DNA of 64,000 nt from NCBI GenBank assembly GCA_002331145.1, contig DCYT01000002.1, positions 23,337 to 87,336 of the forward strand. Reading direction: 5' to 3'. The translations under genes were made by a program, and so were the position numbers. Below the pieces are notes generated by a model that had not been told where the DNA came from, made no database searches, and saw nothing but the letters and a program-made list of their open reading frames with translations. Source of the stretch: Candidatus Minusculum obligatum (GTDB taxonomy: Bacteria > Patescibacteriota > Minisyncoccia > Phycocordibacterales > Phycocordibacteraceae). Within the stretch, counting starts at the first letter, position 1, and the number at the start of each line of letters is the position of its first letter. Positions 3,620 to 9,202 of the stretch are shown piece by piece.

Positions 3620-4366
3620 TTAGTTTGCTACGGTGATTTTTACAAATGCACCATTATTATCCTCAGCAGATTCAACAACTCCACTCTTGTGGTCAATTGC
3701 AACTGCAATCTGTAGATCAGTTCCAACCTTTGATCGGTCAAATCCGATTACGTACTCAATCTTTTCTCCAGGGAGAAGGTTCTGTACGTGCTCAGCTTTT
3801 CCTTCAAAGATGTAGGTTGTCTCAGTTGGCATTACAACATTGAATCGCCAATTAGTTCCTGTCTCTTTTGTTCCTTTATTCTCAACTGCAAACTTCACGG
3901 CAATTCGATCAGTTTTTGAAAGAGTTGATGTGGCAACAAAGTTATCTGCTGCATATCCACCAACAAGCTTTCCTGTTGCAAGAATAGTTGGCACAAGATC
4001 AGGAAGTCCGTTTGGATCTGATACTGGTGCTCCAGGATTCTGTTCAGTTACTTCTGTTGTTTCTCCTCCAGGTGTTGGAGTTACAGCAGGAGTCTCTACA
4101 ACAGGCTCCTCAACTTCCGGCTCAAGAACGATAGGGAAGTTGGTTGTTGGAGTTGTAGTGCTTGTCTCAACGACAATTACGTCTCCATCAGCTGGTACGA
4201 AGATGCTTGTTATACCTACGACAGCAGCTGAGAGTCCATTAACCGCACCGTTTACAACGGTAGGGATGAATCGAGCTGAATTTCCAGCAAGTACAACAGC
4301 AAGAGCAAGAAGGGTAATGAACCCAACTACTGCAAGACCATTGATTGCTGCGTTTTTTGTTTCCAT
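3620..4366 (-). CDS. Membrane-anchored protein with Pro/Thr linker and CARDB-like Ig domain
   Basis: N-terminal TM helix, PT/PE-rich linker, and PDL...F.V.N.G...V.ES.EDNN motifs typical of CARDB. Confidence 0.7.
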   Translation of the reverse strand: METKNAAINGLAVVGFITLLALAVVLAGNSARFIPTVVNGAVNGLSAAVVGITSIFVPADGDVIVVETSTTTPTTNFPIVLEPEVEEPVVETPAVTPTPGGETTEVTEQNPGAPVSDPNGLPDLVPTILATGKLVGGYAADNFVATSTLSKTDRIAVKFAVENKGTKETGTNWRFNVVMPTETTYIFEGKAEHVQNLLPGEKIEYVIGFDRSKVGTDLQIAVAIDHKSGVVESAEDNNGAFVKITVAN

Positions 4367-4479
4367 ATTGTTTACTAACGCTTACTAATAAGTGGCAGAT
4401 TTTTACCATAGACAGAGTCTAATGTCAAGCACAAGAGGAAGCGGTTCTCTTGACAAAAGAGTTCTTTTAGTGTACTAAT

Positions 4480-5172
4480 ATGCCAGTCAATATGACTGAG
4501 CGCAAGACAGTATTTGTACAGACAGTGCGAGTTATTCGCACAATCCTACGGAATAAGTGGAAATTCCTGGCAATTTTTGTAATTGCCTTTCTTACTTTTG
4601 TATGGATTCTTGGGCGTCTAGATTTGCTCCCAGAGCCAGACACTTCAAAGAGTCTAAGTACTATTACAATTTCAAAGGAAAAGAATTCTTTTCCTGCGGC
4701 AGCTGCAGTTGCACTAGCAAAAACAGCTGAAAAGCCAACTCGCGTTGTTATTGACTCAGTTGGTGTTGATGTTGAGGTAAATAATCCGTTTAAGACAGAT
4801 ATTGCCTCACTTGATAACTCACTACTCTCAGGAGCTGTGCGATATCCAACATCAGGAAAGCTTGGAGAGAATGGAAATGTTGTGATCTTTGGTCACAGTT
4901 CGTACCTTCCAGTTGTAAAGAATGAATACTTTAAGGCATTCAACGGACTTCAGAATCTAAAGCGTGGAGAGATTATTGAGGTGCATGGAGAAGGTCTTGT
5001 ATATGAGTATGAGGTAAGTCGTGTGTATGAGGCAGATGCCACAGATACACGGATTCCACTTACAAAAGATTCAAAGAAACTGACTCTTTCTACATGTAAT
5101 TCATTTGGTGATCTAAATGATCGACATGTGGTAGAGGCATATTTCGTGGGAAGCAAAAAGATTTCTTCGTAG
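4480..5172 (+). CDS. Sortase
   Basis: N-terminal TM; catalytic His (FGHSS), TLSTC motif and downstream Arg (DRHVV). Confidence 0.92.
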   Translation: MPVNMTERKTVFVQTVRVIRTILRNKWKFLAIFVIAFLTFVWILGRLDLLPEPDTSKSLSTITISKEKNSFPAAAAVALAKTAEKPTRVVIDSVGVDVEVNNPFKTDIASLDNSLLSGAVRYPTSGKLGENGNVVIFGHSSYLPVVKNEYFKAFNGLQNLKRGEIIEVHGEGLVYEYEVSRVYEADATDTRIPLTKDSKKLTLSTCNSFGDLNDRHVVEAYFVGSKKISS

Positions 5173-5246
5173 AAATTTCTTTGCTCTCTATGAGAGCGTG
5201 AACATTACAACCGTCGCTACGGCGACGCAACAGAGAGGAAAAGCCG

Positions 5247-6230
5247 ATGGTTATTCGAATCATCATTCTGGCTGCGTCGCTCATCTTCGGATCGGCGGCT
5301 CACGCTCAGACACCATGGACAAATTGGGGCTCAGCTCCATATGCGTCCAGTCAGGAAGAAGCTTTCGAGCTCCTGCCTGAAGCGCTTGTTGCGCTTGGGG
5401 TTCCGCAGGAACTTCACAGCGAATTCATTGATATGGTTTCCGAGAATCCGGATGGGGAAGAAATCTTCCTTGATCCGAATGATCGGCTCATCGCGATGAT
5501 GAGTGGGGGTGCAAACCCTCATGCCATGCATGACGTGCCTGTTGCAGCCATTCCGGTCAATGAGACTGGTACGGTTGTGCAGGCAGCGCGTGCGCGCAAA
5601 TGGGAGATTGAGTATGAAGGCGTCACGTACGTCCTCATCCTCCCGGAAATCTGTTTCAACTGGTCGTACAATACCTTCGAGGTTGAAGTACGAGAAGTTG
5701 AGGTGCCACCTCCTCCCGAGGAATGTGCCATTATCGTATTTCCGGCTCAAGAAGGCTGGGTTGTTCGAAACTTCTTCCTTGCGGAAGAGAGTCGACTGCC
5801 TGCTAGCAATTGCTGGGCACTGCTTGATGGCGTTGATCATGAAGATGGTGCACGTATAAGCTCCTTGCCTGGTCGTTGTGATAACTGCGATCTTGAGCCC
5901 TACTTGCGTTGGGCACGTCGTGAGCACGGTCTTCGTGGAAGTCCTGTGAACAGCGCTAAGTATGGCGCCGAACGTGGCAATGTGCATGCGGTAATCATTC
6001 CGATCTCGCAGATTGAAAACTACAATACGATCTGCGTGGGTCCAGATGAACAGCGCCAGCGCTATTCGCCGGTGACAGTCGAACCCAGTGATTGGGATTC
6101 GGCTCTCCGGGAAAACCCGTTCGCGATTGATTTGCCTCAAGGGCAAACAATTCTGATTACCCATCAAGTGAACATCGAGGGGCGGCACTTTGAGTCGCTT
6201 CCGCGACGTCGCACCTGGCTGTGGTGGTAG
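5247..6230 (+). CDS. Secreted hypothetical protein, Cys-containing, GC-richer than flanks
   Basis: Signal peptide ending AAHA-Q, GAGAGG SD, own downstream hairpin. Confidence 0.8.
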   Translation: MVIRIIILAASLIFGSAAHAQTPWTNWGSAPYASSQEEAFELLPEALVALGVPQELHSEFIDMVSENPDGEEIFLDPNDRLIAMMSGGANPHAMHDVPVAAIPVNETGTVVQAARARKWEIEYEGVTYVLILPEICFNWSYNTFEVEVREVEVPPPPEECAIIVFPAQEGWVVRNFFLAEESRLPASNCWALLDGVDHEDGARISSLPGRCDNCDLEPYLRWARREHGLRGSPVNSAKYGAERGNVHAVIIPISQIENYNTICVGPDEQRQRYSPVTVEPSDWDSALRENPFAIDLPQGQTILITHQVNIEGRHFESLPRRRTWLWW

Positions 6231-6233
6231 GCA

Positions 6234-6260
6234 GTAGGAGAGTGCACTGCACTCTCCTAC
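6234..6260 (+). terminator. Hairpin terminator
   Basis: GTAGGAGAGTGCA-c-TGCACTCTCCTAC. Confidence 0.7.
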
Positions 6261-6281
6261 ACACCTCTCTTTTTTATACTT

Positions 6282-9143
6282 ATGATTTCAAAACCAAAAA
6301 ATATCCTTGCATATGCAAAAGCACATCCGATTAAGTCGGCTGTTCTTGGTGCATTTACATTTTTTACAATTCTAGGTGCAGGCTTTGGAACATTTTATGC
6401 AATTGCACCTGAGAGTGCAGAGGCACTTATTACAGGTGGGCCTGGATGTTGCGGAGGAACTTATGATCCAATTATCGTTGATCCTTGGATTCCTGGCGGA
6501 GGAGGTGGCTTCGGCGGAGGAGGTGGCGGAGGAGGTGGATCTGCTCCTGCTCCAACATGTACGCTTTCTGCTAATCCAAACTCAATTCTTGCAGGAGGAA
6601 GCTCAACGCTCACTTGGACAACAAGTTATGCAAATGAGGTAACTATCGATAATGGTGTCGGAGGAGTTGCCATTGGTTCTGGGACAACAAGTGTAAGTCC
6701 ACCAAACACAACAACCTATAGGCTTTCTGCTACAAACACTATAACGGGACGAACTACTGTGTGTACTGCAGCAGTAACTGTTACTCCAGCTCCAGTAGCG
6801 CCAAGCTGTACGCTTGATATTGCGCCTGCAGTTGTTGAGCTTGGAAATTCAGCTTCAGCATCTTGGACAACAACAAACGGAAGCACTTTTAGTATTAGTG
6901 GAGGAATTGGGCCTGTAACACCAGTTGCAGCAGGAAGCACAACAATTACACCAACAGCTCTCGGTACGTATACATATATTGGAGTAGTAACGAGCGCCAC
7001 AGGAGAAACTGCGACGTGTACTGACTCACTTGAGGTCATTCCACCAATTGTGGTGAATGCGCCAAGTTGTGAACTCAATGTCATTCCAGAGACAATTACT
7101 ATTGGAGATACAGTATCTATTGAGTGGGACACTCGATTTGCTAACACATTTAGTATTGATAATGGAATTGGAGCAATTTCAATTCTTACAACACCAGTTG
7201 CGGGAGGAGTTGTAAAAACAGTGCCAACAACAGAAGGGACAATTACCTACACGGGAACAGTAACAGCGCTCGATGGAACTACTGTGACATGTTCTGATAC
7301 GGTAAACGTACTTCCTGTTGGAGTGGATGCTCCTGCATGTACCCTTACTACCGATGGACTTGGTGCTGGGGAAACTGAAACAACAATCTACTGGACACTC
7401 ATCAATGTAGTTTCAGCAACTCTAAATGGAAAGAGTATTGCTCCTGTTGATGGTTCACAAACTGTAGGGGCAGGAACCTACACTCTTACTGGATCAAATA
7501 CAGATGGAGTTGAGGTTACGTGTGGACTTGTAATCGAACCGCCGCTTGATGGACCTGCTTGTACGCTAACAGCAGACAAACTTTCTCTTGCTCCAGGTGA
7601 GACAACTACAATCAACTGGACAATTAACAACGCAACAGAAGCAACGCTACAGCACCTTGATGCAGTTTCTATCATTGATCCAACAGATGGATCACAGTCT
7701 GCGGTTGCAGGAACGTACACACTTTCTGTAGGGAATGGAGTACAGAGTGACACGTGTGAGGTAACAATTGCAACAGTAACTCCAGGAGTACTTAGTTGTA
7801 CGCTCGATATTGACGAGGGTGTTATTCGATCTGGACAGTCAGCGAATATGACGTGGAGTACCAATGAGGCTGTCTCATTTACTATCAATGGAGATGATAA
7901 GGATCTTTCAGGAACTGAAGTTATTCGTCCACTGGGAGTACAGATCTATACATACACAGGAATTGCGACAGACGCAGATGGAAACACTGTTGAGTGTGCA
8001 GATACTATTCAGGTAACAGGAGGATCAGGTGGAGGAGGTCTCTCATGTGCAATGAGCTTCACCGAGTCTAATATTAAGAGTGGAGGGAAATCAACACTTC
8101 GATGGGAGGTTAACAATGCTGATCCAAGCACCATTGAAATTAATCAGGGAATTGGAAGTGTAGATCCAATTGATAGTGCTGATGTTACCAAGAATGCTGT
8201 TGGAACACATGAGTATATTCTTACCGCTCGTGGAGATGGAGATCAGGTAACATGTCGAGCAACCCTAACTGTTTCAGGAGGATCAGGTGGATGTACAAGT
8301 GGTTGTGGAGGTGGAAGCCGCCTGCCACAGGTGACTATCGATTTCCTTAAGGGGCCAAATGAGCAGCCTCTTGCCTTTGTTACTCTTTCACAAATTCCAT
8401 ATACAGGAATTGAGCTTGGGCAATTTGGCACAGTTATTTACTGGCTATTCCTAACAATCTGGAGCGGTGCAGTTGCATACCTTGTATTGTTCAAGATTGT
8501 GCCATTTACAGGCCGAAAACTGGCTGCAGTTAAGAATGGTGTGTCTGAGGCGATAAATGCCACAGAAGAGGGTACAATGGATATAACTATGCATGAGGAA
8601 ATGGAAGATATTCAAATGGATGGATTCTCTCCAAAGCAAGGAGATGAAGCTCTTTCTGTTGAAGATATTGTTCGTGGTCTCTCACGAATGCATCAAGAGT
8701 CTCGACCTGTCGCATCTGAGATTGAGGTGGAGGAGGAAGAGCCTGAGGTGTATGAGGCCGATGTAGCGCGCGAGATGGAAACAGCTCCAGTACAAACAGC
8801 AACACCACACTCTACTGGAGAAGAGCTTCAGCTACTCAATGCTCTTATGAGTGGAGATCGAGACACAAGCTTTAGTTTGCTGCGACGTGCAACTCGAAAT
8901 GGAGGTCGTCCAGATCTATTGATTGAGAAAGTGCTTGTGCACCTTGATGCTGCATATCGAGCACGAATTGATGGAATTCCTTGTTCTGAGGATGTGCGAC
9001 GAGCAACTGCAGCTCTAGATACTGCGCTTCTTGAGGAGGTGATTAGTTCTCTTGCATCTGCAATTGATACAACATATTCACAGTCTCAAACTGGAGCAAA
9101 GCTAGCGCTCGCTAGGGCGCACGCGGTGATTGAGCGCGGATAA
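6282..9143 (+). CDS. Large surface protein: 7 Cys-paired Ig/PKD-like repeats, IPYTG-TM sorting-like signal, cytoplasmic C-terminal domain
   Basis: N-terminal hydrophobic segment, Gly linkers, repeats of the form xPxCxL...W...Y...xxC, IPYTG at 8394-8408 followed by a TM helix and RKL. Confidence 0.85.
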   Translation: MISKPKNILAYAKAHPIKSAVLGAFTFFTILGAGFGTFYAIAPESAEALITGGPGCCGGTYDPIIVDPWIPGGGGGFGGGGGGGGGSAPAPTCTLSANPNSILAGGSSTLTWTTSYANEVTIDNGVGGVAIGSGTTSVSPPNTTTYRLSATNTITGRTTVCTAAVTVTPAPVAPSCTLDIAPAVVELGNSASASWTTTNGSTFSISGGIGPVTPVAAGSTTITPTALGTYTYIGVVTSATGETATCTDSLEVIPPIVVNAPSCELNVIPETITIGDTVSIEWDTRFANTFSIDNGIGAISILTTPVAGGVVKTVPTTEGTITYTGTVTALDGTTVTCSDTVNVLPVGVDAPACTLTTDGLGAGETETTIYWTLINVVSATLNGKSIAPVDGSQTVGAGTYTLTGSNTDGVEVTCGLVIEPPLDGPACTLTADKLSLAPGETTTINWTINNATEATLQHLDAVSIIDPTDGSQSAVAGTYTLSVGNGVQSDTCEVTIATVTPGVLSCTLDIDEGVIRSGQSANMTWSTNEAVSFTINGDDKDLSGTEVIRPLGVQIYTYTGIATDADGNTVECADTIQVTGGSGGGGLSCAMSFTESNIKSGGKSTLRWEVNNADPSTIEINQGIGSVDPIDSADVTKNAVGTHEYILTARGDGDQVTCRATLTVSGGSGGCTSGCGGGSRLPQVTIDFLKGPNEQPLAFVTLSQIPYTGIELGQFGTVIYWLFLTIWSGAVAYLVLFKIVPFTGRKLAAVKNGVSEAINATEEGTMDITMHEEMEDIQMDGFSPKQGDEALSVEDIVRGLSRMHQESRPVASEIEVEEEEPEVYEADVAREMETAPVQTATPHSTGEELQLLNALMSGDRDTSFSLLRRATRNGGRPDLLIEKVLVHLDAAYRARIDGIPCSEDVRRATAALDTALLEEVISSLASAIDTTYSQSQTGAKLALARAHAVIERG

Positions 9144-9166
9144 TACTCGATCATTTTTTACCGATG

Positions 9167-9202
9167 TATAAAAACAGCACTCGTATGAGTGCTGTTTTTA
9201 TA
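9167..9202. terminator. Bidirectional intrinsic terminator
   Basis: TATAAAAACAGCACTC-gtat-GAGTGCTGTTTTTATA. Confidence 0.9.

Follow-up and report, generated by a model that had tools for sequence, protein, structure and literature searches.

A sortase locus of Candidatus Minusculum obligatum encodes a surface protein with a likely internal sorting signal and a putative DnaX-derived cytoplasmic tail

The 953-aa protein encoded close to the only sortase gene of Candidatus Minusculum obligatum carries a likely sorting signal, IPYTG, which is located 244 residues before the C-terminus and is followed by a membrane helix and a cytoplasmic tail. The tail is predicted to be a derivative of domains II and III (lid and collar) of the clamp-loader subunit DnaX without the ATPase domain, the lid being clearly recognised in relatives. 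Our best reading of these features, which we hold tentatively, is that the sortase anchors an extracellular stalk and that the membrane-bound remainder is a pseudo-subunit which may dock on the clamp loader. To our knowledge, the substrates and acceptors of CPR sortases have hardly been described, and the literature searched contained no report of a membrane protein with a clamp-loader lid or collar. According to an excerpt of PMC6744442, over half of the CPR genomes encode a sortase. The present analysis names the signal, [IV]PYTG with its helix, together with its locus in 115 of 301 genomes sampled from one order, and shows that a protein need not end at its sorting signal.

The window, i.e. 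the whole stretch of DNA analysed, comprises 64,000 nt of contig DCYT01000002.1 (GCA_002331145.1; positions 23,337-87,336, forward strand), in which the locus occupies positions 3620..9143 (Table 1). The three ORFs described in an earlier note on this DNA, for a CARDB-like protein, a sortase and the 953-aa protein, are all present. A scan of the genome contigs returned nothing beyond a single nearly identical locus and two weak stray matches, and promoter and terminator scans gave signals at or below chance. The sortase, which had been called intact on the basis of its His, TLSTC and Arg, proves to be so: it matches PF04203 (E 1.5e-19, 70.4 bits versus a cut-off of 26.6), has all of its catalytic residues (H139, C206 in TLSTC, and R215) and carries an N-terminal membrane anchor. 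It is the sole sortase of the genome (one PF04203 match). In the sortases of neighbouring loci the triad is present in 75 (H), 76 (C) and 76 (R) of 76 proteins, the one miss being a cut fragment.

Table 1. Features of the sortase locus, in window coordinates.
Feature	Position	Strand	Remarks
CARDB protein ORF	3620-4366	-	248 aa
Sortase ORF	4480-5172	+	230 aa
Accessory secreted protein ORF	5247-6230	+	327 aa; absent from the earlier note
Sortase-substrate candidate ORF	6282-9143	+	953 aa
Signal peptide, predicted	6282..6425	+	Hydrophobic stretch 17-42; cut after A48 read by eye
Seven two-cysteine Ig-like repeats, extracellular stalk	6549..8282	+	Repeat alignment with paired Cys
Extended sorting motif, residues 696-709	8367..8408	+	Ends in IPYTG 705-709 (8394-8408)
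Membrane helix and basic residues K738, R745, K746	8433..8519	+	Hydropathy 2.0; helix at about 718-739, pLDDT 85-96
Short conserved helix, residues 790-802	8649..8687	+	Conserved in profile A1; possible remnant of the first lid helix
DnaX-type collar domain (domain III), predicted, residues 843-953	8808..9143	+	Fold and profile; near-invariant D889, K940

The signal peptide of the 953-aa protein was judged from hydropathy alone. The repeats of its stalk probably have an Ig fold, as suggested by weak Pfam matches in relatives and an I-set lead from the Atlas; the ectodomains of the relatives interchange SdrD_B, SpaA, VWA and DUF11 domains. It had been claimed that IPYTG at residue 705 is followed by a membrane helix, basic residues and about 200 further residues, and this arrangement holds, the hydrophobic stretch spanning about residues 717-742 and about 214 residues lying beyond the helix on the cytoplasmic side. 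The pattern [ILVM]PxTG occurs seven times among the 648 ORFs of at least 150 aa in the genome, and the only match of a motif-plus-helix profile in the genome is the 953-aa protein, the sole candidate substrate; the combination of motif and helix in this protein is not a chance occurrence. A second look-alike motif, VPFTG at residue 740, lacks conservation and faces the cytoplasm. Among 165 complete rows, whose motif counts are biased by their selection with the motif profile, P, Y, T and G fill their columns in 163, 161, 164 and 165 rows, respectively, and L stands at -3 in 160; conservation reaches nine residues upstream of the pentapeptide and also includes the linker past it, with G at +4 in 154 of the rows. 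The conservation of PYTG in homologues, on which the earlier note had made its proposal depend, is seen in a sample chosen by the collar profile only (n = 38) as well, in which the helix is preceded by xPxTG in 36 proteins and, more narrowly, by PYTG in 35; in the family set, xPxTG is found at this place in 27 of 27.

Co-occurrence was analysed in the 301 genomes of the order using later profiles in place of profile A1 (130/301 genomes), which was dropped because it included an Ig repeat. A sortase is found in 112 of the 115 genomes with the motif versus 138 of the 301 overall, kin among these not being independent, and it is located upstream of the motif gene, on the same strand and within 10 kb, in 63 of the 92 genomes with a listed sortase place; the proposed co-occurrence and synteny of sortase with PYTG-helix-tail proteins are thus recovered. 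Homologues away from a sortase, a case that had been raised against the signal, were found, but with the motif lost or damaged: where the adjacent sortase is missing, there is no motif in G366 and L128/L129, it has decayed to APYIG in G330, and it reads LPETS in G446 and LPEVG in G290. As the motif is decayed or gone in these cases (G366, G330, G290/G446 and one metagenome fusion), IPYTG is likely a real sorting signal.

The system resembles the LPXTG/SrtA paradigm (S. aureus; classes A-F) in its signal peptide, xPxTG, hydrophobic helix and basic residues, and in a dedicated sortase with His, Cys and Arg adjoining its substrate. Unlike the canonical cell-wall sorting signal, as defined in a passage of PMC12445088, the signal here is not terminal, and its consensus is [IV]PYTG with an extended conserved segment upstream. 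The sortase also differs in scoring below the cut-off of every NCBIfam sortase class, A-F and GN, the best scores and cut-offs being 34/140 (SrtD), 32.5/165 (D), 28.4/160 (E) and 32.7/39.35 (TIGR01076). Among wall genes, the genome has three transpeptidases and one Mur ligase match, and a search for FemAB gave no match, in which the system is again unlike the paradigm. Some relatives at the same locus have canonical short tails, with 31-44 residues after TG. It is quite probable that the neighbouring sortase cleaves the 953-aa protein at IPYT|G; the cut would anchor the Ig-like stalk to the cell wall, with peptidoglycan as the presumed acceptor, and would leave behind a membrane-bound tail that is predicted to be an ATPase-less DnaX collar.

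The suggestion that the tail has a folded domain of its own agrees with the predicted collar fold at its C-terminus. Its model matches E. coli gamma 245-363 over 110 residues (Z 14.2, rmsd 3.1; the first unrelated entry has 6.6), the best Foldseek E value is 2.9e-3, and profile-profile comparison with DnaX collars gave 95.3% (E 2.4e-8), at a sequence identity to DnaX of 11-16%. The collar family stays below the Pfam cut-off of PF12169 (best member E 0.002), searches of the sequences of solved structures with profiles A1, A2 and A4 returned nothing related, and A2 matches the single DnaX of the genome at only 1%; the evidence for the homology therefore comes from the comparison of profiles with profiles and of folds. 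Beyond the family, DnaX is all that the collar profile matches; the matches in G220, G517 and G560 were DnaX itself and were removed, which reduced the count for the order from 43 to 42. No AAA family match to the ATPase domain I was found in the 953-aa protein with Pfam or NCBIfam, the pre-lid region being occupied by the membrane helix and linker. An intact dnaX gene is present elsewhere in the genome, at C5:194591-195613. The DnaX origin of the tail had been missed by the earlier note.

The tails of relatives also contain a lid (domain II; residues 103-175 in the model of G262), which is found in 25 of 38 proteins; lid and collar follow each other in the same order as in DnaX, and 172 residues align to gamma 179-361. 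The protein in the window appears to have lost its lid, and the short conserved helix listed in Table 1 matches the start of the DnaX lid weakly (probability 10%, E 0.003). Like DnaX gamma/tau, the tail has a collar (III; PF12169) with the same fold over 110 residues and profile matches of 92-95%. Unlike DnaX, it lacks domain I, does not keep the sensor-2 motif of the lid, has a disordered lid-collar linker of at least 50 residues, is fused behind a membrane helix and has two collar charges reversed: the columns of D889 and K940 are conserved in 191 and 187 of 192 collars, respectively, where DnaX has R (27/27) and E (25/27). This paired reversal may make the tail collar unable to mix with DnaX.

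Inactive subunits are not foreign to clamp loaders, delta and delta-prime being described as such in part of PMC6997377. The fold of the collar is shared by B. subtilis delta (Z 12.5), RFC (10.7), delta-prime 8val_E (10.6) and MgsA (8.3), and the lid profile also matches RFC5 (E 0.004). Unlike the tail, however, delta, delta-prime, the RFC small subunits and RarA/MgsA are all soluble proteins that retain domain I, and judged by sequence profiles the nearest relative of the tail appears to be DnaX. Stand-alone AAA+ lid-like domains, which share the lack of an ATPase, gave Z values of 8.2 (Pol epsilon B N-terminal, 2v6z), 7.0 (Pol alpha p68, 2keb) and 6.9 (archaeal DP1, 2kxe), a range that the comparison tool calls common arrangement; these domains differ from the tail in being eukaryotic or archaeal and soluble, with neither collar nor sortase signal. 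All three are replisome docking modules.

In the reading that we prefer, the tail would dock on the cell's own clamp loader, its presumed partner, as a membrane-tethered pseudo-subunit, and would hold or restrain the replication machinery at the spot of stalk export, e.g. a host-contact site. Among 82 relatives picked by hand, 17 have lid and collar, 12 collar only, 21 lid only and 31 neither; that all three kinds of tail are kept fits two surfaces, each binding something that DnaX binds. The position of the locus, with gyrB on one side in 14 of 20 loci and thrS (13) or dnaE (9) on the other, weakly supports a replication partner. Against docking stand the low identity to DnaX, the reversed collar charges and the apparent loss of the lid from the protein in the window; a complex prediction with two DnaX collars and the tail collar gave no answer (score 0.00) and counts neither way. 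The link is dispensable, since 31 of the 82 substrates have neither domain and both motif and sortase are absent from 160 of the 301 genomes. The wider proposal, that in an order of Patescibacteria a copy of dnaX became a membrane pseudo-subunit behind a sorting signal so that a stalk-building protein tethers or gates replication at the host-contact site, is conceivable but rather doubtful. Were the pseudo-subunit reading true, surface display would be linked directly and physically to the replisome, and if the tail binds DnaX, it would offer a testable handle on the coupling of replication to attachment in ultra-small bacteria that depend on a host; all the parts are small and can be produced in E. 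coli, with no need to grow the organism itself.

The tail would act with or without cleavage, because it persists in lineages that have lost both sortase and motif. In G366 and L128/L129 a membrane-bound tail is kept without motif, stalk or adjacent sortase, and in G253 it is kept without the motif next to a sortase; these motif-less tails sit behind an extra N-terminal hydrophobic segment. The collar thus survives the loss of sortase, motif and stalk, and therefore its job needs no cleavage; the earlier suggestion that cleavage drives a cytoplasmic signal is not supported and is weakened by these tails. Complementation of a truncated delta-prime by the tail was ruled out, short delta-prime subunits being equally common with and without it (48/50 genomes), and a helicase start joined to a tail on one 2-kb contig (P0125) is probably an artefact of assembly.

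Sortase processing would be the same if the collar were instead an orthogonal self-oligomerising module that clusters several precursors, sortase and CARDB protein in a membrane patch, thereby grouping the displayed stalks, without contacting the replisome. Collars join clamp-loader subunits into a ring (in part of PMC11436948), DnaX alone self-oligomerises (in part of PMC3643586), the paired R/E to D/K reversal would preserve a salt bridge within the family, and three separate fusions of the helix and tail to the N-terminal part of the CARDB protein (P0115, P0092 and G330) suggest a membrane complex; the 21 lid-only tails and the collars kept without stalk and sortase are left unexplained, however, and we regard this alternative as possible, on the unlikely side. 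The motif is kept on the nearly stalkless proteins of G427 and G485 (it is also found on a very short protein in G357), which adhesin display leaves unexplained and which weighs against the preferred reading; the cut itself may matter. In a more specific form of the model of the earlier note, the resulting Gly stub might lead to an intramembrane cut, the freed lid or collar then inhibiting or activating the clamp loader and so gating replication, with which the conserved post-motif linker and the predicted soluble fold of the tail would agree; given the motif-less tails, and no intramembrane protease gene seen in the annotated loci, such a cascade is improbable. It is very improbable that PYTG merely binds the sortase and holds it where the tail sets, the uncut stalk remaining membrane-anchored: the upstream conservation, the stalkless motifs and the absence of any other substrate to be explained would suit such binding, but the triad is intact, T and G are nearly invariant, canonical short-tailed versions exist at the same locus, and the only sortase would be left without a substrate. 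On a tree of the sortases that was built quickly from 74 rows, with strong support for 15 of its 71 branches, and that cannot order gains and losses, the tail label switches about 10 times, this genome being wrongly labelled collar-less (its locus lacked the substrate) and lid-only tails being labelled 'none'. These changes and the graded loss of lid, collar or both would suit a functionless, decaying remnant of an old dnaX duplication, an idea that is hardly credible, and largely refuted already for collar-bearing lineages, by D, Y, K and R positions conserved at 90-99% in the 192 collars, a collar that is single-copy in 49 of the 51 genomes of the family, and tails kept when all else is lost.

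The CARDB protein is membrane-anchored, with an N-terminal helix, a Pro/Thr linker and a CARDB domain (PF07705, residues 142-239, E 2e-6, above the cut-off); it has a homologue in 18 of 20 compared loci and is retained in the sortase-less G366. A role as Lys acceptor of the class C pilus type found no support in the displayed columns of the CARDB-domain block of about 20 homologues, among which no Lys column reaches 60%. The ORF following the sortase gene encodes an accessory secreted protein that belongs to no known family, without match in Pfam or NCBIfam, in a variable slot between sortase and substrate. Its homologues are limited to one of 20 order loci and one family locus, the GC content is 0.50 at 5001-6000 versus 0.42 just upstream, and in other loci the slot is filled by unrelated proteins.

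The window carries a set of four genes, flanked by gyrB on one side and by thrS and dnaE on the other (named by reading their translations rather than by family search), which encode a divergent membrane protein with a CARDB domain, a sortase, a secreted protein of 327 aa belonging to no known family, and a 953-aa protein that is the candidate sortase substrate. An earlier note had described the CARDB protein, an intact sortase and the 953-aa protein, and all are indeed present, the sortase having the catalytic residues H139, C206 and R215. It is the sole sortase in the genome (598 kb, 99% complete), and scored below every cut-off of the NCBIfam class profiles. A near-identical locus is found in the record Patescibacteria group bacterium UBA3533, and the named homologues belong to Candidatus Kaiserbacteria and Paceibacterota. 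The gene for the secreted protein has a raised GC content, and its slot holds unrelated secreted proteins elsewhere. The convergent substrate and thrS genes are separated by an inverted repeat between A and T runs, likely a two-way terminator, which is absent from the list of a terminator scan of the window.

Features of the window and of other loci discussed, with coordinates within each sequence
Sequence	Coordinates	Strand	Feature
Window	3620-4366	-	CARDB protein
Window	4480-5172	+	Sortase
Window	5247-6230		Secreted protein
Window	6282-9143	+	953-aa protein
Window	9160-9200		Inverted repeat
L115	4488-5348		Stalk-less substrate
L116	5377-6216		Stalk-less substrate
L128	4816-5760		CARDB fusion
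L224	1483-2682		CARDB fusion
P0092			CARDB fusion
L074 (G000, contig C5)	1468-2094		Delta-prime, 208 aa
L072 (G000, contig C5)	1477-2118		Tentative delta, 213 aa
L037 (G000, contig C5)	24-1502	opposite to dnaX	Large serine-recombinase-like ORF

The 953-aa protein begins with a signal-like N-terminus and seven two-cysteine repeats; IPYTG at residues 705-709 precedes a membrane helix, basic residues come next, and ~214 cytoplasmic residues form the tail, which bears out the arrangement claimed for it. Residues 681-953 as a query matched 621 representatives (E 0.001 or better), and in 165 complete rows from 195 proteins the motif residues P, Y, T and G were kept in 163, 161, 164 and 165, respectively. 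As these rows were chosen with a motif profile, a second set was chosen by the collar (DnaX domain III; residues 843-953) alone; xPxTG occurs in 36 of the 38 proteins examined (of 42 genomes), as well as in 27 of 27 proteins of a family set, so the proposed conservation of PYTG holds. Same-locus relatives reach canonical signals, with the chain ending 31-44 residues after TG, and their ectodomains interchange among SdrD_B, SpaA, VWA and DUF11 types. Recurring motifs close the short tails (C-termini of L023, L024, L027, L209, L220 and P0144), D-x-F-I-x-x-Q-I in some and a basic F-K-x-x-N-L-x-K/R in others, which are possibly separate docking helices.

In the AlphaFold model of residues 681-953 the last domain is confident. 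Foldseek placed E. coli clamp-loader chains at the head of its ranking (best E 2.9e-3, none below 0.001), and a wide structure search matched the model to gamma 245-363 (Z 14.2, rmsd 3.1, 110 residues), followed by delta, RFC and MgsA; unrelated rows start at Z 6.6. Since helical bundles with Z under 13 can arise by chance, sequence support matters: the collar profile matched 24 DnaX collars (95.3%, E 2.4e-8), and the whole-tail profile matched 27 DnaX (92.3%), with lid (DnaX domain II) and then collar in the same order. The tail model from genome G262 folds as lid plus collar, with 172 residues aligned to gamma 179-361 (Foldseek E 1.1e-4); its high rmsd reflects the flexible linkage of the domains, and its lid alone gave an rmsd of 3.3 against isolated gamma. 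The tail is homologous to DnaX, and lacks the ATPase domain. Such a sortase substrate, with a sorting signal followed by a DnaX-derived domain, is real, conserved and apparently undescribed: a full-text literature search, with subscription journals mostly outside its coverage, found no paper describing either a [IV]PYTG-type signal or a clamp-loader domain bound to the membrane. The family may be listed, unnamed, in the protein-family tables of PMC6744442.

In one set of 301 genomes of the order, a sortase was found in 138 and a motif-plus-helix match in 115 (both 112, sortase only 26, motif only 3, neither 160); no P value is attached, as kin are not independent. Among the sortase places listed (150 of 194), 63 of the 92 motif genomes so covered have a same-strand sortase no more than 10 kb upstream, so the suggested co-occurrence and synteny are both seen. 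These tallies include the unpublished G443, without which 115, 138, 112, 92 and 63 each fall by one. Twenty fetched loci, one of them a DnaX control, contain sortase (18), the CARDB protein (18), gyrB (14) and thrS (13), and each residue of the catalytic triad is retained in 75-76 of 76 sortase rows.

Loci lacking the sortase served as natural controls, its absence from incomplete genomes being no proof of loss. In G366, where a sortase was looked for and none found, the CARDB gene and thrS are present and the protein consists of helix, lid and collar, without stalk or motif. In G330 (90 contigs, no sortase found) the N-terminal part of the CARDB protein is fused to APYIG, helix and lid. Stalk and lid are retained beside thrS both in G446 (no sortase found), where the motif position reads LPETS, and in G290, which has LPEVG and a sortase 50 kb off. 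The loci L128 and L129, without sortase within 8.7-10.8 kb of sequence, encode a fusion of CARDB N-terminus, helix and collar. The motif therefore decays without its sortase, whereas the tail persists. Against a simple picture speak G253, which has lost motif and stalk with an intact sortase alongside, and G427 and G485, which keep the motif with the stalk almost gone. Stalk-less substrates consisting of a signal peptide, 10-20 residues, VPYTG, helix and collar adjoin an intact sortase in L115 and L116, and the CARDB N-terminal membrane part was fused to the substrate helix-plus-tail in three separate cases (L128, L224, P0092).

When 82 proteins with the motif, taken from hand-picked loci, were sorted by domain, 17 had both lid and collar, 12 the collar, 21 the lid and 31 neither, and one is cut; reversed decoys gave 0 matches in the lid search. 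The collar occurs in 42 of the 301 order genomes, in single copy in each, and in 49 of 51 family genomes. Its profile, run on a sample of 100 genomes of the phylum, matched DnaX alone. The lid profile matched 3 of 44 further genomes, all three already among the cases described.

The sortase would cut between T and G and transfer the stalk to a wall amine, leaving Gly, helix and tail in the membrane; the genome carries transpeptidase and Mur ligase genes, and FemAB was searched for and not found. We tentatively favour the reading that the tail would then dock on the clamp loader, since some lineages retain the lid without the collar and others the collar without the lid, and since these domains persist where the surface parts have been lost. 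That the tail instead self-oligomerises is somewhat unlikely: it fits the CARDB fusions and the reversal of charge between DnaX (R 27/27, E 25/27) and tails (D 191/192, K 187/192), in the register of the profile alignments, but not the lid-only tails. A second cut that frees the tail is improbable, and a motif serving as docking site only is slightly more so; both rank below docking on the clamp loader and self-oligomerisation.

The delta-prime of the window's own genome (G000) and a protein tentatively taken as its delta, on a TIGR01128 match of E 0.0015 with nothing from Pfam, seemingly miss the lid and retain a small collar; in 48 of 50 genomes of the order, delta-prime frames measure 202-299 aa, and the clamp loader seems reduced. 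In L066 (G023) the dnaX frame, of ~790 aa, has a long insertion resembling an intein or homing endonuclease. The ESM Atlas holds clusters of 110-116 aa proteins, some viral, with PF12169 in 21-54% of members; these are stand-alone collars or fragments, and could be phage clamp-loader modulators. In G000, the recombinase-like ORF, recognized by eye, terminates right at the 3' end of dnaX.
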